DNA from: an uncultured Clostridium sp.
Lineage (GTDB): Bacteria > Bacillota > Clostridia > TANB77 > CAG-508
Direction of reading: 5' to 3'
DNA: 64,000 nucleotides
Assembly: GCA_947303785.1 (NCBI GenBank)
Contig: CAMYZH010000001.1
Location: forward strand, 3,896 to 67,895
Positions 3,714 to 59,176 of the stretch are shown here, one piece after another. The notes below the pieces were generated by a model. That model did not search any database, was not told the DNA's origin, and saw nothing but the letters and a program-made list of their open reading frames with translations. Position 1 is the first letter of the stretch; every line of letters begins with the position of its first letter. A program made the translations under genes and the position numbers.

Positions 3714-5180
3714 TTATATACCTATTGGACATAAATCATCTGTTGCAATTTTTTCTACACATTGAAATTGAGTTAATTCTTTATCAAGATAATTTTTATA
3801 TTTTTCTGTATTATTCTCATCAGGTTCAAGTTTTTTATTAGAGCCAATTAATATTATATTTTGTATTTCATCATCATTAAAATAATCTTTTTGTATTTGA
3901 AAAATCTTAACATCATCAAACACTGCTTTGTATGTCGCATACTCATATTTTATCATTTTAGAGTTTGTTCCTGTTAAAGATCCTACAATATTTGTTATTA
4001 CTATTCCATCATCAGAAAGGCTTCTTTTTACTTGTTGCATTGCTTCATATGTAGTTAATTGAAATGGTGCGTTTAGCCCCTTAAATGCATCTATTAAAAT
4101 ACAGTCATATTTTTTGGTATTAGTGTTTAAGTATCTTCTTCCATCTTCGTGGTATATTTTTAAATTTGAATTATTTGTATCTAAATTGAAAAATTGTTTT
4201 GCTATTTCAGTCATCTTAGGGTCTATTTCTACAACATCAATTTTTTTATCTGGATATTTATTTAAATAATAAGTTGGATATGTATATGCTGCTCCACCAA
4301 TCATTAATACATTATTAGTATCAGGTTTATAAATCTCAAATAAATCATAATATTTAAGATATGTACTTGATAGCTCATTATCCTTTGAATCTATTGATTC
4401 TAGGCCTAAGTCAACTTGTAAAGTATTAAATTCATTGCCACCTGAATCATGTATTTTTTTTACCCAAATTCTACTATATTGTGAATCTGTATCTAATAAT
4501 ATATCAGAATTTTTTTTGAAAAATAATTGTTTTCCAATGAAATATAAAAAAACTAATAAAACTAACATTATTATTGCTTTTATAATATATTTTATGTCTT
4601 TATCTTCTCTTAACAAAAAAGATAATATACATAAAATAATCACAATCATCAAAATAACATTTTTAACTCCTAATTTTGGTATTAATAGAAATCCTGCCAA
4701 AAATGTTCCTACAATACTTCCTACTGTGGAACAAGCTGAAATTCTCCCTGAAGTTTTTCCTATATTTCCTAGCTCATCTCCTTCTAATTTAACAGCAAAA
4801 GGTGAAGCCATAGCAAGTAACATACTAGGAATTCCAAATGTAATTGTAGATGTTATTATTGCAATTAAAGGTAAACTTAAGCTTGTATTTGAAAGAGGTT
4901 TTATTACATATATTTCTATTAATGGAATTAAACATATAAAAATTCCAGCATCTAATAAAAATAAAGATAGTAGATTTAATTTAGGATGTTTATCTGAAAT
5001 CTTTCCTCCAATATAATATCCTAAACTCATAAATGCAAGCATCATTCCAATTATACATGTCCAAATTAAATTAGAATTACCTAAATATGGAGATAATATC
5101 CTCGAGGCAACTAATTCAACTATCATGCCTATTCCACCGGTTATAAATGCTACTATTTCTAAAATATATTTATTTTTCAT
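3714..5180 (-). CDS. Fused polytopic membrane domain / spermidine-synthase-like (class I SAM-MTase fold) protein
   Basis: 488 aa. The N-terminal ~200 aa are multi-TM. The C-terminal domain has the spermidine-synthase-like motif VLMIGGAAYTYP ... IDVVEIDP ... YDCILIDAF. The start overlaps the ATPase stop by 11 nt. Confidence 0.75.
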   Translation of the reverse strand: MKNKYILEIVAFITGGIGMIVELVASRILSPYLGNSNLIWTCIIGMMLAFMSLGYYIGGKISDKHPKLNLLSLFLLDAGIFICLIPLIEIYVIKPLSNTSLSLPLIAIITSTITFGIPSMLLAMASPFAVKLEGDELGNIGKTSGRISACSTVGSIVGTFLAGFLLIPKLGVKNVILMIVIILCILSFLLREDKDIKYIIKAIIMLVLLVFLYFIGKQLFFKKNSDILLDTDSQYSRIWVKKIHDSGGNEFNTLQVDLGLESIDSKDNELSSTYLKYYDLFEIYKPDTNNVLMIGGAAYTYPTYYLNKYPDKKIDVVEIDPKMTEIAKQFFNLDTNNSNLKIYHEDGRRYLNTNTKKYDCILIDAFKGLNAPFQLTTYEAMQQVKRSLSDDGIVITNIVGSLTGTNSKMIKYEYATYKAVFDDVKIFQIQKDYFNDDEIQNIILIGSNKKLEPDENNTEKYKNYLDKELTQFQCVEKIATDDLCPIGI

Positions 5181-5835
5181 TTGTATAATCTCCTATTTTA
5201 CCGTCAAACACTATTTCTTGATCTAATGCTATTACTCTAATATTTTTGTTTGTCAATTCATCTATATCATGTGTTGCCATTATTATAGAAATCTTATCAT
5301 TTTCATATAAATCATCTAATATTTTATAAAATAATTTTATAGAAAATGCATCTAATCCACTGCAAGGTTCGTCTAAAATCAATAATTTTGGTTTACCTAT
5401 TAATGTTCTAGCAAGTAATACACGTTGTCTTTGACCTCCTGATAAATCACCTATTTTTTTATAAATTAAGTCTTCAATTTTTAGTTTTTTTATTATTTTT
5501 TCAAATTCTTCTTCATCATTTTTACTATAAAATGGCTTAATTCCATGTTTTTGAGTTCCTGTCATTATTATTTCTTTGGCAGTTGCTGGAAATTCTATAT
5601 CTGTCATGTTATTTTGTGCTAAATAAGATATTTCAGATCTTGGTAATCTATATTCAATATCTCCAGAATATTTCTTATTTAATCCAGCAATCGCCTTTAT
5701 TAGTGTACTTTTACCAGATCCATTTTTCCCGACTAGACAAATATATTCATCTTCATTAATTGTAAGATTTATATTCTTTATTGCTATATGCTCATTATAT
5801 TTTATTTATATATTTTTTACATTAATAATACTCAA
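5170..5835 (-). pseudogene. ZnuC-like ABC transporter ATP-binding protein, interrupted by an in-frame TAA at codon 10
   Basis: The track ORF (5170-5607) has the signature LSGGQRQR and Walker B LLILDEP but lacks Walker A. Reading the same frame upstream gives LVGKNGSGKST (Walker A) and a TTG start at 5835 behind GGTGGA. There is one in-frame TAA at 5808-5806 (NVKNI*IKYNEH). Confidence 0.75.
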
Positions 5836-5847
5836 AATTTTCCACCT

Positions 5848-6807
5848 CTAATTTAATGCTTCCTTAAGATTTTCTAAATTCCTATACATAATTGATAAAT
5901 AATTTTCATTAGAATTTAATTGATTTTTAGTAACTGTATGTAGACTATGAAATTCTAAACATTTAGCTCCTGTTTCTTCTGATATTCGTTTGGCATAATT
6001 TGATGAAGATAGTTCCTTATAGAAAATAACTGGTAAATTATCTTTTTTGACTTCTTCTATTACACTATATAGTTTTTTTACACTTGGTTCATTACCTTCT
6101 CCGCAAGAATCATAAGCTGTCACAAAATTTAAATTATATCTTTTGATAAAATATGCATAAGCAAAAGGTCCTCCAAATGCAATTTTATTTCTCTTTGAAT
6201 TGTTTACAGTATTCATGATAGACTCATCTAATTCTTGAAGTTTTAAAATATACTTTTCCGCATTTTCTTTATAATATTCACTATTATTAGGATCTATCTT
6301 TGATAGGTGTTCTTGGATATTTCTTACCATTAAAATTGATTTTGTTGGATCAAGCCAAATATGAGTGTCATATTTTTCATGTTCCTCATGCTCCTCGTGT
6401 TCTTCTGTATTTTTCAAATATTCTTCTTCAAATTCTTCATTTTCTATTAACTCAATATTGTCTGCTACACTATTTATATTGCTATTATCATCAATACCGG
6501 TAGTAATTGTTTCTACCCATGGTTCTAGCTGATTACTTGTATAAAAAAACACATCTGAGTCTTGAATACTTGCAATATCTTGTGTTGATGGATCATAATC
6601 ATGTATTTCGACTCCAGGTGGTAGTAACATTACAACTGTTGCTTTATCTCCAGCAACCTCTTTGGTAAAATCATAAACTGGATAAATACTTGTTGTTATA
6701 TATAGTTTTCCATCTTCTTTTCGTGTTTTATTATTATATCCAAAAATTGCTACTATTCCAATTACAACTATAATCAAAATAAATAATGAAATAATTGTTT
6801 TTTTCAA
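5848..6807 (-). CDS. Zinc ABC transporter substrate-binding lipoprotein, ZnuA/AdcA (cluster A-I) type
   Basis: 319 aa with a signal anchor, the conserved IHDYDPS region and DTHIWLDP. The acidic/His-rich loop EEHEEHEEHEKYDTH is typical of zinc-specific members. Confidence 0.85.
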   Translation of the reverse strand: MKKTIISLFILIIVVIGIVAIFGYNNKTRKEDGKLYITTSIYPVYDFTKEVAGDKATVVMLLPPGVEIHDYDPSTQDIASIQDSDVFFYTSNQLEPWVETITTGIDDNSNINSVADNIELIENEEFEEEYLKNTEEHEEHEEHEKYDTHIWLDPTKSILMVRNIQEHLSKIDPNNSEYYKENAEKYILKLQELDESIMNTVNNSKRNKIAFGGPFAYAYFIKRYNLNFVTAYDSCGEGNEPSVKKLYSVIEEVKKDNLPVIFYKELSSSNYAKRISEETGAKCLEFHSLHTVTKNQLNSNENYLSIMYRNLENLKEALN

Positions 6808-27692: not shown

Positions 27693-28544
27693 ATGCAAAA
27701 ACTTATAGTTGAAACAAAATTTGATAATAAAAAATTAAGTAGTTTTCTATATTTTCACTTTTCTGGTCTTACTTCATCTACATTTCATAAAGCTCTTAGG
27801 AAAAAAGATATTAGAATAAATGATAAAAGAATTTCTGAAGACCAAATAGTTCATGAGTTTGATACTATTACTTTATATATAGTTGATGAGTTATTATATA
27901 AAAATTATTATATTAAAACTATTTATGAAGATGAAAATATTATTGTTGTAGATAAACCTGCAGAGCTTGAAGTTTTATCTAATAATTCTTCACAAGAAAG
28001 TTTAACTTCTATTTTAAATAAAAAATATTCTTACATATCTCCTTGTCATAGAATTGATAGAAATACTACAGGTCTTGTCTTATTTGCTAAAAATAAACAA
28101 GCTTTAGAAATATTGTTAGATAAATTTAAAAATAAAGAAATTAAGAAAAATTATAGATGTACTGTTTTGGGTAAAATGCCTCAAAAAGAAGCTTTATTAA
28201 AGGCATATTTATTTAAAGATAATAAAAAATCTATTGTTTATATTTCAGAAAAACCTAAAAAAGGATATGTTGAAATTTTGACCAAATATAAGGTATTAAG
28301 TCAAAATGGTGATAATACTTCTACACTTGATGTTGAGCTAATTACAGGGCGTACTCATCAGATAAGAGCTCATCTTGCTTTTATTGGTCACCCTATAATT
28401 GGTGATGGTAAATATGGAATAAATGAAATCAATCGAAAATTTAATTCAAAATTTCAAAAATTAGAAAACTATAAAATTGAATTTTGTTTTAAATCAGATT
28501 CAGGAATTCTTAATTATTTAAATGGAAAGATTATTTCTATTTAA
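27693..28544 (+). CDS. RluA-family pseudouridine synthase with an S4-like N-terminal domain
   Basis: 283 aa. Catalytic HRIDRNTTGLVLFAK and TGRTHQIRAHLA. Confidence 0.9.
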   Translation: MQKLIVETKFDNKKLSSFLYFHFSGLTSSTFHKALRKKDIRINDKRISEDQIVHEFDTITLYIVDELLYKNYYIKTIYEDENIIVVDKPAELEVLSNNSSQESLTSILNKKYSYISPCHRIDRNTTGLVLFAKNKQALEILLDKFKNKEIKKNYRCTVLGKMPQKEALLKAYLFKDNKKSIVYISEKPKKGYVEILTKYKVLSQNGDNTSTLDVELITGRTHQIRAHLAFIGHPIIGDGKYGINEINRKFNSKFQKLENYKIEFCFKSDSGILNYLNGKIISI

Positions 28545-28610
28545 ATTTATTTATTTTAAAAAAATAAAAGCGCTATTATTAGTATAAAACTAATTACTAG
28601 CGTTTTTTGG

Positions 28611-29180
28611 TTATTTTTCAAATATACTTAAAGGTTTTGATACTGCATATATTATAGAATTACATTTTGTTTTTGCAAACGATTTACCTAAAGCTTTTCC
28701 TCCAACTGTTAGTGATGCAACAAATGCGCTCATTAAAAATTGTATATCTAATTTTAATCCAAAATTTTGTGTAATCTTTAGTGTCAACATGGCACTTATT
28801 GCTCCACTTAATACTCCTGCTATATCTCCTATTACATCATTACAGATGTTTGAAACTTTAGGAGCTGATCTTATTAATTTAATTGCAGTTTTAGCTCCTT
28901 TTACTTTTTTTGATGCCATTGCATGAAATTCTTCTTCTGTCGCACATGTAACTGCAACTCCTACTATGTCAAATATTACTCCTACAAATATAACTATTAT
29001 TAATACTATTACTGCTGGAATTATGTTTAGCTTTGTAATGCTTGTTGTAGATATATATGAAAATATCATTGAAAGCATAAATGTTATTATAAATATTGTT
29101 AAAAACCATTTTATGGCTTTTAATTTTTTATTTTTGTTTTTTTTGTTCATTATTAGATTTTTATTCCTTTCATCTTTCAC
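28611..29180 (-). CDS. Membrane protein, DUF21/CNNM-TM-like (tentative)
   Basis: 189 aa, 3-4 TM. The segment TCATEEEFHAMASKKVKGAKTAIKLI...NDVIGD resembles the DUF21 S-x-x-E-x-A...A pattern. Confidence 0.4.
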   Translation of the reverse strand: MKDERNKNLIMNKKNKNKKLKAIKWFLTIFIITFMLSMIFSYISTTSITKLNIIPAVIVLIIVIFVGVIFDIVGVAVTCATEEEFHAMASKKVKGAKTAIKLIRSAPKVSNICNDVIGDIAGVLSGAISAMLTLKITQNFGLKLDIQFLMSAFVASLTVGGKALGKSFAKTKCNSIIYAVSKPLSIFEK

Positions 29181-30864
29181 TTTCAGGTCTTTTAGCTAGT
29201 GTACCATCCTCATTATATTCTTTCTTTTCATAGAATGCAACTTCTCCTTTTTCATCTAAATGAGAAATTTGCTCATATCTTTTTACTCCATCTACTACAT
29301 TTCCGATGTGATATTTTGTATTAACACCATCTTCATCATATTCTCTTCCAGAAAATGTATATGTACCGTCTCCATCATTATTAGAATAATCATAATTATA
29401 CTCACTTGCAACTTCAAATCTATCTTTTTTCTTATTAAACGGATAATATTTAATTATACGTGAAACTCTTTCCTTATTATCATAATAAAAAGTTCTCTTT
29501 CTAAAAGGAGCTTCCTCAAAAGTCATTTCATCTTTACTGACTATTGAATTATTATTATATAATGTTGATATACGATATGATGGTTCATATGCTTCATTTT
29601 CGTAATAAAAGAGATCTGTATGTAGTTGACCATTTTTATCTTTATAATAGTGTTCATCTAAAAGACAACCTACATCCACATCTGATTTTTTACTCGTTGT
29701 AAATGTCTGAAAAATTACTCCATTGTAATCTGGTGAAATTACTATATGCTCATCAGGCTTATGTTCTTTACTACTCCATGTCGATGTTGAATAATATGTT
29801 ATTAGATGAGATTCCTTTATTCTATCACATAGGCTACATATTTCTTTATCATTTAATTTACCATCTTCTTTAATTTTTTTAGCTATATTGCTCAAGCAAT
29901 TTCTTTCATCATCTAAACTGCATATACTTTCTATTATACTTTTAAACTTTTTCATAAATATGTCATTTAAGTATAAATATTCAGGTATTCCACATCTTCT
30001 TGCTATTTCTGCTAATGCCAAGCTACATTTTATATCAAATAACCTTTCTTTGGCTTTTTCTTTTTTACCATTTTCATTAACATTATAGGTAGTCTTAGAT
30101 AAAAATTGACCTCCTACTACCTCACCTTGATGAAACTCAGTATACATACCTTTTTCATCATACATATACCCTTTAAAAGAAAAAGTATGATTATTTATGC
30201 CGTGGGGAGTAAAATCGTAACAAATTTTTCTTTTACCATTTTCGTAATTTTGTACAGCATCAATAATCCTACGATGCCCATCTAATAAATAATATCCTTT
30301 TTCAGTTCCTTTATCATTATATAGTATTTTTTTAATACTAAGCATTTCACCTTCTGTATTATAAGAACTCTTCTCTTTTCTTATTGGTTTTCCTTTGGAC
30401 AAATATAGAATATCGCTTTTATGGAATCCAACCTCATATATGTTATATTCATCTTTTGATATAGAACTATAGGCCGGTCTTGAACCTGAAGCTCCATATA
30501 CAGTAACTGTTTGAAAGCATACGCCCCCATTTGGTTTAACATCCATAGTACAAATTGTTTTCTGAGAATTCTGGGCAATTTCTTCCTCTTGAAGCTTTGT
30601 CCACTTTTTGGCTTCTTCATCTGACATCATTTTTGAATGATCGGAACATATGCTTTCAGCTATTTTATTTACTGCTTGATCATCTAATTCTCCACCTTGT
30701 TTTATGGTCTGTGATATAGCATTTAAATCGGTTCCATTAGGAGCTGATGATGTTAAACTTTCTACTATATTTTGATACTTTGTCATAAACATTTCATTTG
30801 AACATAAATTTTTAGGTGCTCCTAGTTTTTTTGCGACTTCTTCTAATGCTTTTCTATATTCCAT
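29170..30864 (-). CDS. Hypothetical soluble protein built from two ~280-aa tandem modules
   Basis: 564 aa. The two halves align, for example ALEEVAKKLGAPKNLCSNEMFMTKYQNIVESL vs ALAEIARRCGIPEYLYLNDIFMKKFKSIIESI, and YDEKGMYTEFHQGEVVGG vs YDEDGVNTKYHIGNVVDG. RBS AAAGGAAG precedes the ATG. No known family recognised. Confidence 0.55.
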   Translation of the reverse strand: MEYRKALEEVAKKLGAPKNLCSNEMFMTKYQNIVESLTSSAPNGTDLNAISQTIKQGGELDDQAVNKIAESICSDHSKMMSDEEAKKWTKLQEEEIAQNSQKTICTMDVKPNGGVCFQTVTVYGASGSRPAYSSISKDEYNIYEVGFHKSDILYLSKGKPIRKEKSSYNTEGEMLSIKKILYNDKGTEKGYYLLDGHRRIIDAVQNYENGKRKICYDFTPHGINNHTFSFKGYMYDEKGMYTEFHQGEVVGGQFLSKTTYNVNENGKKEKAKERLFDIKCSLALAEIARRCGIPEYLYLNDIFMKKFKSIIESICSLDDERNCLSNIAKKIKEDGKLNDKEICSLCDRIKESHLITYYSTSTWSSKEHKPDEHIVISPDYNGVIFQTFTTSKKSDVDVGCLLDEHYYKDKNGQLHTDLFYYENEAYEPSYRISTLYNNNSIVSKDEMTFEEAPFRKRTFYYDNKERVSRIIKYYPFNKKKDRFEVASEYNYDYSNNDGDGTYTFSGREYDEDGVNTKYHIGNVVDGVKRYEQISHLDEKGEVAFYEKKEYNEDGTLAKRPESER

Positions 30865-30899
30865 AAAATATCTTCCTTTATTTAAAATAGTATATATAT

Positions 30900-31474
30900 A
30901 AAAATAAGATGGTAGAAATTTAAGTAAATTTTACGGTTTAGGTCTAGCAGAATTTCTCTGCTTCTTACTAAGCATTACTGCTTAGCTGTTTCCATTTAAA
31001 AGAAGCATTCCATAAAGCTTGGAAAGCTAGATCACCACTAAAATCCGTACCTTAATCCCTAAATTTCCCTGCTTCTCAATCGAAGCAAACATTCTAGAAG
31101 TTTTCCTTCATATACTAGAACTATTACTAGTCTCTGTTGCAATAATGATTTCATAGTCTCAAAAATCAGCAACGTGGCCTCGCACTAATTCTCAAGTAAC
31201 GACTAATCCCAAGATTATCACTCAAGACAGATTTATTGTATAACAAATGCCATACATTTAACTTAGATTAATATCACAAAAGATACAAATTGTGATAGTG
31301 AAAATAGGATTATAATATATGCCATTATATCTCTTCCTAAGTTCTTTGCTCCTTATGCCAGCACAAAATTGGCATTTCATGCAAAACATAGGGCGCCACA
31401 TCTAAATAAACCATGTGTGGATTTTTAGCCCCACCTTCGTAATAGCCTGTATAACTAGAATAATGCACCATCTG
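30900..31474 (-). ncRNA. Candidate large (~575 nt) structured non-coding RNA or giant structured leader; class unassigned
   Basis: No ORF of 60 aa or more on either strand. G+C is 22-27 per 60 nt versus about 10 per 60 nt in flanking coding sequence. It has its own promoter and many perfect 5-8 bp stems. See findings. Confidence 0.55.
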
Positions 31475-31480
31475 TTTTCT

Positions 31481-31509
31481 ATTATACCAATTATATCTAA
31501 AAATAGCAA
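31481..31509 (-). promoter_or_regulatory. Near-consensus sigma-A promoter with extended -10, reading into the ORF-free region
   Basis: Minus strand TTGCTA (31509-31504), 17 nt spacer, TGgTATAAT (31489-31481). Confidence 0.55.
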
Positions 31510-31549
31510 ATGATTAAAATAACTTTTGTAGTTTATTTTAATCATCTGC
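31499..31549 (-). terminator. Rho-independent terminator of the 867-aa gene
   Basis: 17-bp AT-rich stem GCAGATGATTAAAATAA / TTATTTTAATCATTTGC (31506-31549, one G-U pair), followed on the minus strand by TATTTTT. Confidence 0.65.
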
Positions 31550-31561
31550 TATAAATAATCT

Positions 31562-34165
31562 TTATTTTTTCTTAGTTTTTTTCTTTTTCCCTACTGAACC
31601 TTTATCTTCTTTTATACTTTTTTCTATTTTTTTATTTTTAACCTTTTCATTATATACTTCTTCGATTATATTGATTTCTTTTTCATCTTTTTTCTTTGTT
31701 TTATTTTTCTCTTGACTTACTTCTTCTGCTAAATTAATATCTTTTTTAATTTTTTTATCTTTTTTATCCTTTTTTTCTTCGCTAAATATATTTTCTTTTA
31801 AACTTACATTGTATTCTTCAATATAAACTGTAAGTATTCTTGGATATATTTGGTCTGGCATATTAAAATATCTATTAGTTTTAATTTTTTCTTTTGAAAC
31901 AAGCTCAAATTCAAACATACTACTATCTATTATCATTTTTGAATTTATATCCATTCCAACTGGTAGTGTATTATTTAAATTATCATAATATACTGCATTA
32001 GTTAATAAAATAGCAGGGAAGCCTTCTTTTAGATTTAGCTTAAATAATTTTACACTAGATTCAAATTTATTATCATATGTTTGCAACTCTCTTTCAGCGT
32101 TCATATCGCAAACACAATAATCTGACTGATGTACCTTTTCATTTGCAGGCATAACTTTATATAAAGAAATGTTATAATCAAATTTAATCTTGTGTATTGC
32201 CTCTTTTATCATATTTGTTGCCATTTCTAGTTTTTCAGTAAATTCAAATACATCAATTTTTTTGTTAATATCTAATACTTGATATTTGTCTTTTTCATTT
32301 TCTCTATGAGATTTATTGTTTAAATAACGTACCTTGCTTGACTCATCTTTCATTGCACCAAAAATATCAAAATCTACTTTTTTTGAAGATTGTGTAGCTG
32401 AGGTTGTTAAATATTCGCTTTTTAAGTTTCTAAGCATATCATCAATTGCATCTTTATTCATATCTTTATTTTTTAGCATGTTTATTATTGGTAGAACATT
32501 TGTGCTTGCAATAAATATACTATCAAATTCTTGTTTTGAAAATTTAGTTCTTTGAAGTTTATCATATGTTATTCCAACATCTTCAAAATCATAATCATAA
32601 TCAAAAACTTTCTTTAATTTAGGTACATTTTCTGAATACTCTTCACTTCCGCTCTCTAATGCTAAAACATTATCTTTATTAGCAAATTTCCAAAAATCAA
32701 AAATACTTTTTTTGTGTTCATCAATTTCATTAATATAAATAGTAGCATTTTCTATTTTTTTATCAGTATTTGCAATCTTAAGTTCTAATGCTTTAATATC
32801 TTGTTTTAAATCTTTAACATATCTTTGACTTTTATCGTATAAACTCTGTACTGTAACCAAATCATCAATTGTATGATACTTTTTGTCATCACTATATCCT
32901 TGAATAGGTTTTAGTTTTGTGTCTGTGTCTTCAGTTTCATTTTCTTTTTCATCTTTTTCTTCAACTTTTTCTTTTAGATTTTTTTTCTTTGAAAAGAAAT
33001 ATCTTACTTTTCCCAAAAATGATTTTTTACACTCTAAAAACATAGTAATTTCTTTTTGTTTCATAAAGTATTCAGCATCTTTTTCTTTAGATTTTTCTTT
33101 TAATTCTTTTAATTTCTTTTCAAGTTCAAATGATTCTTGATTAAACTTTTTAATTTCTGCTTCTGTAGAAATATACTTATCTTTTATAAAATCAGGTAAA
33201 TCACTGAAAGATATTTTTTTACCTTCATATAAAAATTCTATCCCATTTTTATCATTTATTTGAGTAGTAAAATTATATCTTCCACCAAGTTCTGTTTGCA
33301 TTATGAATAATGCTTTAATTAATTTATAAAAAGTTTCTGCTTGTTCTTTGTTATCTAAAACAATTTTGTACATAGATTTTAGGTTTTCATAAATTGGTGT
33401 TTCTCCAACTATTTGTAATGTAAGTTTATCATTTATGTCATGTACCTCATAAGTAAGTGACCAATTTTTTGTGAATACCCATAAGTAATTTTCAATATCA
33501 TTAATCTGTTTTGTAGTTAGGAATTCTTCACTGTAATTTACATATGAAATTGGTACATAGATTTTTTCGTCTTTACCACTTTTCTCAAGCTCTATTCTCT
33601 TTTTCAATAAATAAAATAGGTAATCAAATGTATCTTCTTTTAATGATGCAAGCATAAAATATCTGTTTGTTTCTTGCGAATAGTATATTTGCCATAATTG
33701 GTTTCTATTATAATGAACTAAAAATGGTATTTTTTCGGCCATTTTGGATTGTTCTATATCAATTCTTTTAATGTTTATATCAGAAATTTTTTGAAAAACT
33801 CTTAGTAATTCCACTGTTTTTTCTGGATCTTCAGCACTTAGCTTTATAAATTCTCCAAATGGTAGTGAATGAGTATATTTTTCTTTGATTGAATCATCTC
33901 TATATGATGTTGTACAAAAGATTTCTATGTCTTTAATTGATATATATTTATATACTTTTAATTCTTTATCATTATTTAATCTTGAAGGATTAAATATAAT
34001 TGGTTTATTTTCATCTAGGAATTGTGGTAAATTATCTAAATCTAGTCCTATAACACTTAATTTTTCTTTTATATCTTCTTTAGTAATCAAATCTTTACTA
34101 CTCCCTTCGTAAAAAATCTTCAAAAAAATCAATGATAGTATATCATATAGAAAAATTTTTTCCAA
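31562..34165 (-). CDS. Large hypothetical protein with a central coiled coil and a strongly Lys-rich C-terminal tail
   Basis: 867-aa ORF. The start is uncertain: TTG at 34165, or a TTG about 25 codons downstream behind GAAGGGAG. The last ~90 aa are K/E-rich (KKDKKDKKIKK...GKKKKTKKK). No family recognised. Confidence 0.6.
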   Translation of the reverse strand: MEKIFLYDILSLIFLKIFYEGSSKDLITKEDIKEKLSVIGLDLDNLPQFLDENKPIIFNPSRLNNDKELKVYKYISIKDIEIFCTTSYRDDSIKEKYTHSLPFGEFIKLSAEDPEKTVELLRVFQKISDINIKRIDIEQSKMAEKIPFLVHYNRNQLWQIYYSQETNRYFMLASLKEDTFDYLFYLLKKRIELEKSGKDEKIYVPISYVNYSEEFLTTKQINDIENYLWVFTKNWSLTYEVHDINDKLTLQIVGETPIYENLKSMYKIVLDNKEQAETFYKLIKALFIMQTELGGRYNFTTQINDKNGIEFLYEGKKISFSDLPDFIKDKYISTEAEIKKFNQESFELEKKLKELKEKSKEKDAEYFMKQKEITMFLECKKSFLGKVRYFFSKKKNLKEKVEEKDEKENETEDTDTKLKPIQGYSDDKKYHTIDDLVTVQSLYDKSQRYVKDLKQDIKALELKIANTDKKIENATIYINEIDEHKKSIFDFWKFANKDNVLALESGSEEYSENVPKLKKVFDYDYDFEDVGITYDKLQRTKFSKQEFDSIFIASTNVLPIINMLKNKDMNKDAIDDMLRNLKSEYLTTSATQSSKKVDFDIFGAMKDESSKVRYLNNKSHRENEKDKYQVLDINKKIDVFEFTEKLEMATNMIKEAIHKIKFDYNISLYKVMPANEKVHQSDYCVCDMNAERELQTYDNKFESSVKLFKLNLKEGFPAILLTNAVYYDNLNNTLPVGMDINSKMIIDSSMFEFELVSKEKIKTNRYFNMPDQIYPRILTVYIEEYNVSLKENIFSEEKKDKKDKKIKKDINLAEEVSQEKNKTKKKDEKEINIIEEVYNEKVKNKKIEKSIKEDKGSVGKKKKTKKK

Positions 34166-34261: not shown

Positions 34262-36043
34262 CTAAAAAGCCATATTCTCAATTTCTTCTTTAATCTTTGA
34301 AATAAAGTCTTCAAGAGGCATTTGTCCAATATCTCCTTCTTTTCTTTTTCTAACTCCTACAGCTTTTGCTTCCTGTTCTTTTTCTCCTATAATTAGCATA
34401 TATGGTGTTTTCTTAAGTTGGCCTTCTCTTATTTTATATCCGATTTTTTCTTGTCTATCATCTAATTCAACTCTGATTCCTTGTTTAATCAAACTTTCTT
34501 CTACTTCTTTAGCATAATCAATATATTTATCAGATATTGATAAAATTCTAACTTGTACAGGTGATAGCCAAAGTGGAAGAAATCCTTTTGTTTCTTCTAA
34601 TAAGAAAGCAATAAATCTATCTGATGATCCAAGAATTGCTCTGTGAATTACAACTGGTCTATGTTCTTTACCATCTTCACCAATATAAGATAAATCAAAT
34701 CTTTCTGGAAGTGCAAAATCTAATTGACATGTTGGAATTGTTACATCATGATTTAGCGCTGTCTTGATCTGTATATCAATTTTTGGACCGTAAAATGCAG
34801 CTTCTCCTTCAGCTTCATAAAAATCTATATTTAATTCTTTTAATATTGCTCTTAATTGATTTTCTGCTGTTTCCCACATTTCATCATTGTCAATGTATTT
34901 TTCTTTATTCGTTTTATCTCTTAAAGATAATCTATATTGAAAAGCTGAATGTGGAAAATTAAAATCTTTTTCATAAACTTCTGTAATTAATTGAAGTACC
35001 TTTCCGACTTCTTCTTTTATTTGATCTGGTCTTACAAAAAGGTGTGCATCATTTTGACACATTTGTCTAACTCTTTCTAAGCCGCAAACTGATCCACTAT
35101 CTTCATATCTAAAATCATGTGCTATTTCACCAATTTTTATTGGTAAATCTCTATATGATCTCATTTTGCTTTTATAAATTAACATATGATGTGGACAATT
35201 CATTGGTCTTAAAACTAGTTCTTCATTTTCCATCTTCATTACTGGAAACATATCTTCTTTGTAATGGTCCCAATGTCCTGAAGTTTTGTATAAACTTACA
35301 TTTGCAAGTGATGGTGTGTATACATGTTTGTATCCTCTAACTAATTCTTTGTCTTGAATGTATCTTTCAAGTATTCTTCTAATTGTAGCTCCATCTGGTA
35401 AATACATTGGTAGTCCAGATCCTACTAAAGGATGTGTCATAAATAATTCTAGATCTTTTCCAATTTTTCTATGATCTCTTTCTTTTGCTTCTTCTAACAT
35501 TTGCAAATGTTCTTCAAGCATGCTTGCTTTTGGGAATGAAATACCATAAATTCTTTGAAGCATTTTATTTTTTTCGTCACCTCTCCAGTAAGCACCTGAA
35601 GTTGATAATAATTTAAAAGCTTTGATAGGACCTGTTGATGGTATATGTGGTCCTTTGCAAAGGTCAGTATAGTCTCCTTGCTTATAAAAAGAAATAACTT
35701 CTCCTTCAGGTAAATCATTTATTAATTCTACCTTATAAGGCTCTCCTTTTTCTTCCATTAATTTGATTGCATCTTCTCTTGGAAGTTCGAATCTTTCAAG
35801 TTCTAAGTCTTGTTTTACAATGTTTTTCATTTCCTCTTCTATAGCTTTTAGGTCTTCTTCAGAAAATGGCTTTTCAACATCAAAGTCATAATAAAATCCA
35901 CTTTCAATTGATGGTCCAATTGCTAGTTTTGCATTTGGAAATAATTTTTTTACAGCTTGGGCCATAACATGTGAAGTTGTGTGCCAAAAACTAGCCTCAT
36001 CAACATCCATTGTTCTTCCGCCACTTAATTTGATTTTAAACAT
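34262..36043 (-). CDS. thrS: Threonine--tRNA ligase (N-terminal TGS domain largely absent)
   Basis: 593 aa. The editing-domain motif HTTSHVMAQA sits at residue ~21, and class II motifs and the anticodon-binding domain are present. A strong RBS AAAGGAGG precedes the ATG. Confidence 0.95.
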   Translation of the reverse strand: MFKIKLSGGRTMDVDEASFWHTTSHVMAQAVKKLFPNAKLAIGPSIESGFYYDFDVEKPFSEEDLKAIEEEMKNIVKQDLELERFELPREDAIKLMEEKGEPYKVELINDLPEGEVISFYKQGDYTDLCKGPHIPSTGPIKAFKLLSTSGAYWRGDEKNKMLQRIYGISFPKASMLEEHLQMLEEAKERDHRKIGKDLELFMTHPLVGSGLPMYLPDGATIRRILERYIQDKELVRGYKHVYTPSLANVSLYKTSGHWDHYKEDMFPVMKMENEELVLRPMNCPHHMLIYKSKMRSYRDLPIKIGEIAHDFRYEDSGSVCGLERVRQMCQNDAHLFVRPDQIKEEVGKVLQLITEVYEKDFNFPHSAFQYRLSLRDKTNKEKYIDNDEMWETAENQLRAILKELNIDFYEAEGEAAFYGPKIDIQIKTALNHDVTIPTCQLDFALPERFDLSYIGEDGKEHRPVVIHRAILGSSDRFIAFLLEETKGFLPLWLSPVQVRILSISDKYIDYAKEVEESLIKQGIRVELDDRQEKIGYKIREGQLKKTPYMLIIGEKEQEAKAVGVRKRKEGDIGQMPLEDFISKIKEEIENMAF

Positions 36044-36149
36044 ATAAATTCCTCCTTTGCCTTTTAATATAGGCTAAACAAAATTTATTTTAAGCTGTGC
36101 TATAGAGGGCTTTTCATGAAAATTTTAAATTTGCACCAGAATTTAAAAT

Positions 36150-36379
36150 AAAAACAAAAAGCCCCTATAAGCATTTTTAGCTTATAGGGGTAAGTTTATT
36201 TCTTACGGTTCCACCCTAATGTTTAACTCTTAACCGTTTTAACGCAACATCCACGCTTTTCTTTCGAAAAGAAACTCCAGGCTAGTTTTTCCTAAATGTT
36301 TATCAAGATTAGCTTTCAGCCGGTGACTAATCATCTCTTTTAACAACCTTTTTAGTACTTTGTCCCTTCTTCGTTTACA
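36150..36379 (-). promoter_or_regulatory. T-box riboswitch leader (Thr specifier) with intrinsic terminator
   Basis: Minus strand features: stem I AGAAGGGACAAAGTA; a specifier loop with ACC followed by G (complement of 36322-36324); the T-box sequence CATTAGGGTGGAACCGTAAG (36204-36222); and the terminator CCCCTATAAGC/GCTTATAGGGG (36161-36190) followed by a T-run. Confidence 0.85.
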
Positions 36380-36385
36380 TGTATT

Positions 36386-36414
36386 ATTTTACAATTAAAA
36401 ATTGTTTATGTCAA
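36386..36414 (-). promoter_or_regulatory. thrS/T-box promoter
   Basis: Minus strand TTGACA (36414-36409), 17 nt spacer, TAAAAT (36391-36386). Confidence 0.6.
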
Positions 36415-36546
36415 GTGTCAAATGGGACTGTCAAATGGGACGGAGGATTTTGACACTAAAATAAATACTAGCAATTCTTAATATAATATAATTATTTAAA
36501 ATAGTGTCAAAATCCTCCGTCCCATTTGACAGTCCCATTTGACACT
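36414..36546. repeat. 133-bp palindromic element: perfect 44-bp inverted arms around a 45-nt AT-rich centre
   Basis: Arm 36414-36457 (AGTGTCAAATGGGACTGTCAAATGGGACGGAGGATTTTGACACT) is the exact reverse complement of 36503-36546. Each arm contains a tandem 13-bp unit TGTCAAATGGGAC repeated twice. Confidence 0.9.
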
Positions 36547-37323
36547 ACCCTAAAGCAACATCTAATACCATCATTATAACAAACCCTATCGCAACACCAA
36601 TTGTTGCTAAATTAGAATGTTCTCCTTCTTGTGCTTCAGGTATTAATTCTTCAACAACAACATATATCATCGCTCCTGCTGCAAATGAAAGCAAATATGG
36701 TAGAACAGGTACTATTGCTTTCGTTAATAATATCGTTATTATTGCTCCAATTGGTTCTACTATTCCTGATAGTGTACCATATAAAAAGGCTTTAGTCTTT
36801 GACAATCCTTCACTCTTAAGTGGCATAGAGATTATTGCACCTTCTGGAAAGTTTTGAATTGCTATTCCGAATCGCAAGTGCAAAAGCTCCTGCCATTGTT
36901 ATTCCAGCATTTCCAAGTAGTGCACCTGCAAATGTAACTCCCACTGCCATTCCGTTCAGGGATATTATGAAGAGTAACTGCAAGGACAAGCATTGTTGTT
37001 TTTTTTAGTTCTGCCCTTATGCCTTCTGGTTTCTCATCATGTAAATGTAAGTGTGGAATTAAACTATCTAAACCTAATAAAAATAAAATACCTAAAATAA
37101 ACCCTATGGCAGCAGGAAACCAAGAAATTCTGTTTTGTTCTGTAGCCATTTCAATTGAAGGAATTAAAAGTGACCATACAGATGCTGCTATCATTACACC
37201 AGATGCAAAACCTAGTAATACTTTCTCAATACTTTTGTTAATCTTATTTTTCATAAAGAAAACCATAAAACTTCCTGCAGAAGTTCCTATAAATGGTATG
37301 GCCAAACCCAAAAACAAATTCAT
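36545..37323 (-). pseudogene. ZIP-family (ZupT/GufA-like) zinc transporter with two +1 frameshifts
   Basis: Track ORFs 36862-37323 and 36545-36883 are the N- and C-terminal parts. The conserved HNIPEGMAVGV and LAIGIAIQNFPEG motifs read correctly only if one C is removed at 36954 and another at 36869 (minus strand gaaCggaatggca and attCggaatagca). Confidence 0.8.
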
Positions 37324-39229: not shown

Positions 39230-39722
39230 TTATTTTTCTAAATCATTTTCTGCTGATTTTTGTATAATACTATCTGTAATCTCTTCTACTGAATTAACAA
39301 CAGTTCCCATTTGTTTTGTAACATTCACACCTTTACTATTTACAAAAATTGTATTTAATCCAGCATTTCTTGCTCCTAAAATATCTAATAAATAATCATC
39401 ACCAATCATAACACATTGACTTGGCTTGTAGGGTCCGCAGGCCTCTATAAAAGCCTCTTTATGTGGCTTTATCTTACGCTCTCCATAGTATGCAAGGAAA
39501 AAACGTCCTATACCCATATTGTTTAATCTATTTCTTTGTGATAAAGTAAAATAATTTGTTAAAATTGTAATCTCATATTTTTGGGCCAATTCCGTGATTT
39601 GGTTTATTAAACTTTGACTATTATGCACCAACTCTTATGAGTGTCTGACGTACGCTTTCTTCGAAGTTTACTCCGCGGATGAGTGTTCCATCTACATCAA
39701 AGATTAATCTCTTTATTGACAT
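39230..39722 (-). pseudogene. HAD-superfamily hydrolase remnant (frame break and missing cap region)
   Basis: ATG at 39722 gives MSIKRLIFDVDGTLI (motif I) and then a stop at 39623-39621. A second frame from GTG 39631 carries motif II (ITILTN), motif III (KPHKEAF) and motif IV (MIGDDYLLDI). Only about 45 aa separate motifs I and II. Confidence 0.65.
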
Positions 39723-57702: not shown

Positions 57703-58650
<948 letters not shown>

Positions 58651-58771
58651 TTATTATTTTTACCTTTTTAATTTTATTTCTTATATTTTTTTTTGTCAAG
58701 TTGCTAATTTTTTATTGTTATGTTATACTACCATTATAAATTTATAGAATACAAATGAGAGGTGATTATAA

Positions 58772-58915
58772 ATGATAGTTATGAACCACGATGGAGATCT
58801 TTTTGATGAAAGACGTAAAAAAGATAGAAGAACGAAAAATTCAAGCGTTGATAATGAAAGACGCAAATCAGATAGAAGGAAAGAAAATATTAATGAAGTT
58901 AAAAAGAAAAAATAA
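58772..58915 (+). CDS. 47-aa highly basic small protein (not in the ORF track)
   Basis: ATG 58772 lies 6 nt after GAGAGGTGA. It encodes MIVMNHDGDLFDERRKKDRRTKNSSVDNERRKSDRRKENINEVKKKK with a duplicated ERRK-x-DRR motif, and a hairpin terminator follows. It competes with the track ORF 58791-58979, which has no RBS. Confidence 0.4.
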   Translation: MIVMNHDGDLFDERRKKDRRTKNSSVDNERRKSDRRKENINEVKKKK

Positions 58916-58920
58916 AGTTT

Positions 58921-58945
58921 ATGGGATGAATATTTATCATCCCAT
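58921..58945. terminator. Shared terminator hairpin between two convergent small genes
   Basis: ATGGGATGA / TCATCCCAT stem with TTTTT on the plus side. Confidence 0.6.
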
Positions 58946-58947
58946 TT

Positions 58948-59115
58948 TTAATGTGCATTTTTATAATTTGAACATATAGTTTCATCTTCTTTTCTAGATG
59001 TAGTATCTGGAAAAGGCTTTACAGTTATTTGTTCTAGCTTACAATATGGATTTTCAATTCCATTATATTTACAACTTTGTACTGTACATCTGATTGTTTG
59101 ATTATTCTCTTCCAT
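58948..59115 (-). CDS. DUF1540-family small cysteine-rich protein (not in the ORF track)
   Basis: 55 aa, MEENNQTIRCTVQSCKYNGIENPYCKLEQITV...ETICSNY. The C-x-V-x-x-C-x-Y...C...I-x-V...ET-x-C pattern matches DUF1540. A strong RBS AAGAGGAGG lies 9 nt upstream of ATG 59115. Confidence 0.6.
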   Translation of the reverse strand: MEENNQTIRCTVQSCKYNGIENPYCKLEQITVKPFPDTTSRKEDETICSNYKNAH

Positions 59116-59176
59116 AAATATAAAAACCTCCTCTTATGGTATGTATTTATTATACCCTAAAAGGAGATTTTTAATC

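Follow-up and report, generated by a model that had tools for sequence, protein, structure and literature searches.

What is a stretch of about 575 nt doing in a bacterial chromosome if it appears to encode no protein? The question is raised by positions 30,900 to 31,474 of a 64,000-nt segment of contig CAMYZH010000001.1 (assembly GCA_947303785.1) from an uncultured Clostridium sp.; this segment, at its full length, is referred to here as the window. An initial annotation had described the stretch as an orphan candidate for a large structured RNA. Scanning the window against Rfam 15, we observed that 31487 to 30893 of the minus strand matches the OLE (ornate, large, extremophilic) RNA family, RF01071, with 268.9 bits against a gathering threshold of 50 (E 4.1e-75). 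The match spans model positions 1-616 of 616 and is not truncated, and OLE was the sole family to reach its gathering threshold across the 64-kb window. The region is almost certainly an OLE RNA, a structured non-coding RNA of ~580 nt found in Bacillota. OLE had been among the candidates that the initial annotation named, and it was the Rfam check proposed there that returned the family. Since the match is full length, the RNA is no orphan; it is already catalogued, is caught by a curated Rfam model and constitutes no new class.

Does this copy retain the OLE fold? Threading the Rfam consensus structure on the window RNA placed both residues for 146 of the 159 model pairs, and 131 of these 146 were canonical or G-U. 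The minus-strand RNA had a minimum free energy of -162.6 kcal/mol compared with -132.2 +/- 6.1 kcal/mol for dinucleotide shuffles (z = -4.99), a result that bears out the suspicion of extensive structure. The OLE region contains 33.3% G+C against 27.1% for the window. The compositional counts by which it had first drawn attention proved exact (24, 22 and 27 G+C in the 60-nt lines starting at 31021, 31141 and 31381, against 10 of 60 at 30841 and 31621), as did the excess of G over C on the minus strand (120 G, 78 C). The region is also free of sizeable open reading frames (ORFs), as had been claimed: the longest of those overlapping 30865-31561 are 32-47 aa, both strands considered, and in the closest relatives stops and frameshifts interrupt the small ORFs of the RNA region. 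Seven short stems had been listed in the initial annotation. All were found to be perfect complements, and five of them correspond to P14.1, P14, P11, the hairpin at the P7 position and P1; the remaining two, 31355-60/31370-75 and 31396-400/31416-20, lie outside the conserved fold.

Is the fold maintained in related genomes? Using an alignment of OapA, the protein partner described below, we fetched 80 loci (cited by L numbers where needed) from species-representative genomes. All are metagenome-assembled genomes of uncultured gut bacteria, labelled as Clostridia, Clostridium, Eubacteriales, Lachnospiraceae, Erysipelotrichaceae, Bacillota or unclassified uncultured bacteria. This agrees with the host range of OLE, which is confined to Bacillota and consists typically of anaerobes or extremophiles; the window itself was placed in this range by its 82% OapA identity. 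Searched with the window RNA (nhmmer), 77 of the 80 loci yielded a homologue, which in every case precedes oapA and has the same orientation; an Rfam rescan of 11 of those loci returned OLE in all 11, at 249-365 bits. The window RNA was then aligned (MAFFT) with 43 homologous RNAs of related uncultured gut Clostridia, and the pair counts given below refer to these 44 sequences. The RNAalifold consensus of the alignment comprises 136 pairs, 68 of them with compensatory changes, and independently recovers P1-P6, P9 and P12-P14.1. For the named OLE structure we counted the Rfam pairs projected through the window row together with the long-range P1, P2 and P3/P3.1 (172 pairs), with a control in which the 3' partners were slid by 1-3 columns. 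The named structure was paired in 84% of cells (slid, 40-45%), 97 of its 172 pairs had changed on both sides (slid, 35-46) and its covariation score was 0.293 (slid, 0.06-0.10); none of 500 shuffles reached any of the observed measures. The OLE fold is maintained among these relatives via compensatory changes, which is the outcome that the initial annotation had proposed to look for in homologues.

The positions of the individual elements are collected in Table 1, in which the stem numbers P1-P15 have been assigned from what the cited papers describe in their text. P1 joins the two ends of the RNA; its 7-nt complement had been noticed earlier and set aside as not significant, a judgement that does not hold, as an A-U to G-C exchange occurs in 6 sequences (RNAalifold and pair counts, n = 44). 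P2 and P3/P3.1 are 96-100% paired, with changes on both sides in 12 of the 13 P3/P3.1 pairs. Comparable support was obtained for P6 (91-100% paired, 8 pairs with both-side changes) and for the helices of the 3' domain (93-100% paired, 26 such pairs). The hairpin GGUGGG-GCUAAAAA-UCCACA is what we infer, from published text, to be P4a. The GUAA loop of P14.1 is nearly invariant, and one pair of sequences carries GCAA, which is still a GNRA loop. The GGCC palindrome of L9.3 is replaced in three aligned RNAs (L041, L043 and L071) by AGCU, again a palindrome; in the cryo-electron microscopy (cryo-EM) structure, the palindromic apical loop of P9.3 (GGCC, GAUC or AGCU) forms the bridge of the OLE dimer (PMC12286853). 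The helices of the P7/P8 region are merely 7-32% paired across the alignment.

Table 1. Elements of the OLE RNA and of its transcription unit, in window coordinates
Feature	Position	Strand	Basis or remark
OLE RNA gene as delimited by RF01071	30893..31487	-	cmscan, threading, covariation, fold z-score
P1	31472-31467 (GAUGGU) / 30913-30908 (ACCAUC)	-	100% paired in 44 sequences
P2 (long-range)	31462-31455 (UAUUCUAG) / 31097-31090	-	pair counts
P3/P3.1 (long-range)	31453-31439 / 31127-31111	-	pair counts
Invariant hairpin GGUGGG-GCUAAAAA-UCCACA	31435-31416	-	threading; columns invariant in the alignment
J4a/5 joining strand, 5' of P5	about 31414-31396	-	place of the OapC kink-turn in canonical OLE; diverged here
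P5 hairpin	31395-31349	-	cmscan, threading, pair counts
P6 hairpin, conserved apical loop AAUGGCAU at 31326-31319	31344-31300	-	threading, pair counts
Degenerate P7/P8 region	31297-31234	-	low posterior probability and deletions in cmscan alignment
Short perfect hairpin UAUCACAA/UUGUGAUA at P7 position	31297-31272	-	
AU-rich hairpin at P7/P8 position	31260-31234	-	
P9 long hairpin (P9 to P9.3), about 100 nt	31228-31130	-	threading, pair counts
GGCC apical palindrome, L9.3 dimer kissing-loop	31179-31176	-	
Invariant hairpin AAGGAAAACUU	31108-31098	-	threading, pair counts
Variable hairpin UGCUUC/GAAGCA	31088-31069	-	threading, pair counts
3' domain, P12 to P15	31068-30914	-	
P12	31068-31058 / 30924-30914	-	
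P12.1	31049-31045 / 30936-30932	-	fully paired
P12.2	31031-31026 / 30948-30943	-	fully paired
P13	31024-31008	-	5 bp UUCCA/UGGAA, 7-nt loop AGCUUUA; no GNRA loop, no bulge
P14	31007-31000 / 30966-30959	-	fully paired
P14.1	30986-30967	-	8 bp, GUAA tetraloop
P15 region	30958-30949	-	
Sigma-70-type OLE promoter	-35 TTGCTA 31509-31504; 17-nt spacer; extended -10 TGgTATAAT 31489-31481	-	
Terminator-like AU-rich hairpin after 867-aa gene	31503..31552	-	22-bp stem, -22.3 kcal/mol, z -6.83
p564, orphan gene between ole and oapA	29170..30864	-	absent from 80/80 related loci
oapA	28611..29180	-	homologues, DxxxD, OLE synteny, AlphaFold2, Foldseek
GC-clamped terminator-like hairpin and U-run after oapA	28558..28602	-	folding of both strands

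Is the partner gene of OLE RNA present at this locus? The initial annotation had argued against OLE on the ground that no oapA-like gene for a protein with four transmembrane helices follows the region. This argument fails, since oapA is present on the same strand, 1.76 kb downstream, and has been displaced by a lineage-specific insertion, the 564-aa orphan gene that we call p564. The oapA ORF spans 189 aa when read from a GTG, but translation probably begins with the ATG at 29150, which gives 179 aa; this form is identical to a database protein. The gene is intact, its product is 82% identical to that of its nearest relatives, and 2977 homologues were found. Neither Pfam nor NCBIfam assigned a family to the 189-aa protein; because both libraries lack an OapA model, identity was set via synteny, motif and fold. 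The published hallmarks of OapA are four transmembrane helices, a DxxxD motif lacking in CNNM domains, and a nearest solved structure that is CorB, 7M1U (PMC11332333; PMC12265935). In the window protein D115-V-I-G-D119 is invariant in 24 of 24 aligned homologues, and residues 81-112 (TEEEFHAMASKKVKGAKTAIKLIRSAPKVSNI) form a basic cluster with 7 K/R, of which K91, K92 and K97, along with G95, are invariant; this cluster would correspond to the conserved, positively charged patch that OapA exposes to the cytoplasm. Its AlphaFold2 model (predicted local distance difference test score, pLDDT, 77) contains long helices at 2-46, 53-79, 106-140 and 146-171, and the hydropathy profile shows three strong segments and one amphipathic. 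The top five Foldseek matches of the model in the PDB are CNNM/CorB/CorC structures (7m1t, 7m1u, 7cff) with probability 1.00 and template-modelling scores of 0.49-0.57, and a sequence search of the PDB (phmmer) likewise ranks archaeal CorB first, by its CNNM transmembrane domain (7m1t/7m1u, E 0.014). Judged by these features, the predicted 179/189-aa product is OapA. In 77 of the 80 family loci it is OLE that immediately precedes oapA, in the same orientation; the distance from P1 to oapA is 1757 nt in the window compared with 19-1062 nt (median 136) in the 77 relatives.

How is the RNA expressed? The minus-strand promoter that had been pointed out in the initial annotation was the best match of our promoter scan (10/12, with TG), and it does sit on the 3' flank of the terminator-like hairpin after the upstream gene, the 3' arm of that 22-bp AU-rich hairpin overlapping the OLE -35 box. 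An element of the form TTGnnn-16/18-TGnTATAAT recurs in every one of 72 related loci, its -10 box ending 6-9 nt (mode 7) before P1, and T2, A3 and T7 of TATAAT are invariant in the alignment. The conserved sigma-70 promoter thus lies 7-8 nt ahead of P1. The proposal of a large, ornate, structured non-coding RNA with a promoter of its own is right at its core. Because the spacing of promoter to P1 is conserved, transcription would start near 31474, so that the first ~13 nt of the Rfam match (31487-31475) would be promoter DNA (-10 box and spacer) and not RNA. The transcript probably extends from ~31474 to at least 30905.

Downstream of the RNA, neither a terminator scan nor folding detected a terminator-like hairpin between OLE and p564, in agreement with the earlier account. 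The simple scan, which requires at least 3 G-C pairs and so leaves AU-rich hairpins to be seen by folding only, returned nothing in 28400-32000 of the window and nothing in L001. Since no terminator follows OLE, it is probable that OLE, p564 and oapA are co-transcribed; the hairpin at 28602-28558, which is shared with a convergent rluA-like gene, is likely to mark the end of this unit. As predicted from sequence, then, the unit likely runs from promoter through OLE, p564 and oapA to terminator.

The closest relatives are organised differently at the ole-oapA junction. Their spacer of 100-170 nt holds a long AU-rich hairpin with a U-run (z = -2.5 to -3.7), and in L001 oapA has a near-consensus promoter of its own at 5921..5949 (11/12); the window junction has neither. 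At 5860-5950 of L001, and at the same position in L002-L004, L006 and L008-L010, the long AU-rich hairpin is conserved together with an inner GAAAG-looped stem and the U-run, and in the same loci a TTGACA-17-TGnTAAAAT oapA promoter comes next. Given the conservation of hairpin and promoter, ole and oapA are normally separate transcription units in the window clade. Among relatives in general the ole-oapA spacer varies from 19 to 1062 nt. Variable junctions are found at 5600-5980 of L005, which holds repeated elements, at 5700-5960 of L007 and at 1300-2200 of L051, where an ORF-poor spacer of ~0.9 kb accompanies an OapA that is extended at its N terminus to 230 aa. The junction gives the impression of an insertion hotspot.

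What, then, has been inserted here? The ATG of p564 lies 28 nt past the end of the Rfam match and 43 nt past P1, and about 20 nt separate the end of the gene from the ATG of oapA; in this place the closest relatives have a terminator-like hairpin and an oapA promoter, both of which p564 replaces. The protein consists of an internal tandem duplication of a module of ~280 aa, the halves being 24% identical (E 5e-18). A word-indexed search of 5.8e9 proteins found only p564 itself, an exhaustive phmmer search of 1.84e9 representatives gave one weak partial match to a MORN-variant-repeat protein (E 6e-9), and no match was obtained in Pfam, NCBIfam or PHROG. A single-sequence AlphaFold model had a pLDDT of 37 and was unusable for fold comparison. 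The homology of the two halves argues for a real, evolving protein. The ole-oapA junction evidently tolerates the insertion of a 1.7-kb gene that fuses two transcription units, and it is only the local gene arrangement that is unusual at this OLE locus.

How far does the RNA itself depart from other OLE RNAs? The window RNA and its closest relatives (L001-L010 and L076) score 249-269 bits with the Rfam model, compared with 335-365 bits for other gut Clostridia OLEs, and this low-scoring subtype is common to at least 11 distinct species-level genomes. The clade differs from the 33 other OLEs of the alignment in the P7/P8 region, where it has lost canonical P7/P8 and the conserved joiners GUGGAG, AACCU and GUAGCCUG. 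Two protein-binding sites are also altered in this clade. The OapC site is a kink-turn (k-turn) built from J4a/5 and J5/6, in which tandem G.A pairs accompany a C-G pair that is essential, and the substitution C85A abolishes OapC binding in Halalkalibacterium halodurans (PMC9723947). In J4a/5 the Rfam consensus CACAUCGAUGAAG is represented by UAUUUAGAUGUGG in the window (cmscan alignment), the k-turn strand CAUC-GAU-GAAG having become UUUA-GAU-GUGG, with C changed to A and GA to GU. The C-G and G.A determinants are absent from the window OLE as far as the motif, mapped from the text of the paper alone, allows them to be placed. OapB requires the GNRA tetraloop and a bulged nucleotide of P13 (PMC7936274). 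In the window P13 both are missing, the tip being a 7-nt AGCUUUA loop without a bulge, and there is therefore no primary OapB site in P13. The GNRA-capped P14.1 is retained in the subgroup.

Such losses have precedents. Reduced OLE variants have been described from gut lineages with reduced genomes, where TANB77 accounts for most of variant 1 and RF39 for most of variant 2; in these lineages the P13 OapB site is often missing, P7/P8 are short or absent, and OapB and OapC are largely absent (Fernando & Breaker 2024). With the covariance model of those authors, variant 1 scores 310-390 bits and has shorter P7, P8 and P9, and variant 2 scores 235-310 bits and has no P7/P8 (Fernando & Breaker 2024). 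The window RNA combines a shortened P7 and a degenerate P8 with a P9 of full length, and its Rfam bit scores are not comparable with the published cut-offs. Since variant 1 OLEs have been reported without the P13 OapB site too, its absence does not exclude OLE membership, and the window RNA is in line with the known spectrum of reduced OLE variants of gut Clostridia.

How might this RNA act? According to published work on H. halodurans and Clostridium acetobutylicum, OLE RNA is bound by dimers of OapA, a four-helix membrane protein related to CNNM-like putative Mg2+ transporters, the ratio of OapA to OLE being 2:1 or higher; the RNA is held at the membrane, where a membrane-spanning configuration has been proposed for it, and tolerance to ethanol, cold, excess Mg2+ and non-preferred carbon sources depends on it. 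It dimerises partly via the palindromic L9.3 loop (PMC12286853). Its biochemical activity is still unknown, and a membrane-associated, dimeric and possibly membrane-spanning RNA ranks among the most intriguing of the bacterial RNAs in that position. At the present locus transcription would start near 31474, run through OLE, read on into p564 and oapA and end at the hairpin 28602-28558. OLE would then be either excised from the long transcript or active as its 5' part. Because P13 has neither GNRA loop nor bulge and the k-turn lacks its C-G and G.A pairs, we would expect the RNA to work in a reduced OLE-OapA particle that includes neither OapB nor OapC. The value of this copy is modest and comparative: by retaining P1-P6, P9-P12 and P14 while lacking the OapB and OapC sites, the minimal subtype to which it belongs helps to delimit the core required for the OLE-OapA interaction. 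A bolder combination would be that the window clade is a distinct, further-reduced subtype working with OapA alone, and that p564, wedged into the ole-oapA unit and co-transcribed with it, could serve the OLE particle as a new partner or modulator peculiar to this lineage and would then not be a neutral insertion; we give this combination no more than an outside chance.

Several points weigh against reading the locus as that of an OLE RNA working with OapA. The RNA at this locus is known from sequence alone. Its score is ~70-100 bits below those of other gut Clostridia OLEs with the Rfam model, and canonically conserved nucleotides are changed in J4a/5, in the GUGGAG of J6/7, in P7/P8 and in the P13 loop; with several such nucleotides changed, an altered or partly lost function of this copy has to be allowed for. 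oapA is not the immediate neighbour, as in the usual arrangement, since p564 intervenes. Finally, none of the ten small ORFs scanned within the 64-kb window contained an L7Ae or KOW domain of the kind sought for OapB- or OapC-like proteins, a result that carries no weight for the rest of the genome.

Taken to their limit, these points would make the RNA a decaying and possibly non-functional relic of OLE, from which the p564 insertion has removed the OLE terminator and the oapA promoter. The low score of 249-269 bits against 335-365 in other gut OLEs, the loss of the P13 GNRA loop and bulge, of the k-turn determinants and of the canonical P7/P8, and the interrupted operon all fit such decay. 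A relic would, however, hardly be found as a subtype in at least 11 species-level genomes in which the promoter, P1-P6, P9-P12 and P14 are conserved and covary. The 131 of 146 pairs intact in the window and the intact oapA, 82% identical to its nearest relatives, also speak against decay, as do the reduced variants already published from genome-reduced gut lineages largely devoid of OapB and OapC. We therefore consider a relic very unlikely.

Slightly less probable again, and in our view highly improbable, is that the region represents a giant cis-acting 5' leader (riboswitch or attenuator) of p564 and not a trans-acting RNA gene. The absence of a terminator-like hairpin before p564, its ATG only 28 nt past the Rfam match and the probable co-transcription would suit a leader. 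However, the same RNA occurs in 77 related loci that lack the 564-aa gene, and in the closest relatives it is followed by a terminator-like hairpin and a separate oapA promoter. The structure is that of the OLE fold and not of an expression platform, with no alternative terminator/antiterminator pair, and p564 is an orphan insertion, so that the RNA long predates it. These comparisons all but refute a leader as the explanation of the structure, although it likely describes the layout of the transcript.

Hardly credible is a decayed protein-coding gene with incidental hairpins: the overlapping ORF fragments of 32-47 aa are what one might expect of it, but no homologous locus has an intact gene there, the fragments are broken by stops or frameshifts in the closest relatives, substitutions track base-pair covariation and not codon periodicity, and the Rfam match to OLE is full length. 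Another large RNA class (ROOL, GOLLD, raiA, RNase P, tmRNA or 6S), of similar size and not told apart in the initial annotation, has a negligible probability, given that the gathering scan of the whole window gave OLE alone; ROOL, GOLLD, RNase P, tmRNA and 6S, along with T-box, were rejected as the identity of 30893-31487 on the same result.

With OLE RNA retained as the identity of the region, the surroundings of the unit deserve a brief description. Directly upstream lies a gene for a K/E/N-rich protein of 867 aa (31562-34165, minus strand), p867, for which no Pfam, NCBIfam or PHROG match was found, and the order thrS, p867, OLE, oapA is kept in the 9 closest loci (52-72% identity). The OLE region is not the only long non-coding gap of the window, as had been supposed, since 36044-36544 and 58633-59176 each extend over about 500 nt or more. 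The former, ~500 nt long and upstream of the threonyl-tRNA synthetase gene (34262-36043, minus strand), includes a sub-threshold T-box leader at 36183-36380 (minus strand; RF00230, 75.8 bits against a gathering threshold of 93, E 1.5e-16, full model). Between this leader and a split gene for a ZIP-family metal transporter lies a long inverted repeat (36394-36467 / 36493-36566; 74-nt arms, 84% complementary, 25-nt loop). The repeat matches many miRNA-precursor models on both strands, which marks it as a long AT-rich hairpin, and it may be an element resembling a miniature inverted-repeat transposable element. The ZIP gene consists of overlapping ORFs (36545-36883 and 36862-37323, minus strand; 153 + 112 aa) that match the N- and C-terminal parts of Pfam Zip, the split being due to a frameshift, a pseudogene or an assembly error. 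The third long gap, 58633-59176 (about 545 nt), yielded neither an ORF of at least 70 aa nor, among Rfam matches with E of 1 or less, a credible one. Two further genes appear truncated, one at 39230-39631 (minus strand) encoding a 133-aa HAD-hydrolase fragment that covers the C-terminal part of the profile only, and one at 5170-5607 (minus strand) encoding a 145-aa ABC ATPase fragment.

How does this locus compare with known systems? Like the published reduced gut variants, the window OLE belongs to an uncultured, AT-rich gut Clostridia host, has P7/P8 shortened or degenerate and scores markedly below canonical OLEs; as in variant 1, the end of its P13 lacks the nucleotides to which OapB binds. 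Unlike the reduced variants, it has a P9 of full length (about 100 nt), and unlike variant 2 its P7/P8 are not simply deleted. With canonical OLE, as known from H. halodurans and from the 577-nt C. acetobutylicum RNA solved by cryo-EM, it shares P1-P6, P9 with the GGCC palindrome, the invariant AAGGAAAACUU hairpin, P12-P15 with a GNRA-capped P14.1, a Bacillota host and an oapA gene linked on the same strand. It departs from canonical OLE in the tip of P13, which is a 7-nt loop in place of a GNRA tetraloop and has no bulged nucleotide, in the k-turn strand, where the essential C is A and GA is GU, and in P7/P8, which together with their joiners are replaced by short AU-rich hairpins. In addition, the window copy has its own promoter and is not within a long housekeeping operon, and the 564-aa orphan gene is inserted between ole and oapA. 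The predicted fold of its OapA matches the CNNM transmembrane domain of Mg2+ transporters such as MpfA and CorB (7M1T, 7M1U, 7CFF), and the top PDB match is the same as that published for H. halodurans OapA; unlike those transporters, it has no CBS or CorC domains, as is expected for OapA. ROOL and GOLLD resemble OLE in being large, highly structured, multimer-forming RNAs of unknown function, whereas they share no sequence or structure match with the window RNA and occur in a phage or prophage context.

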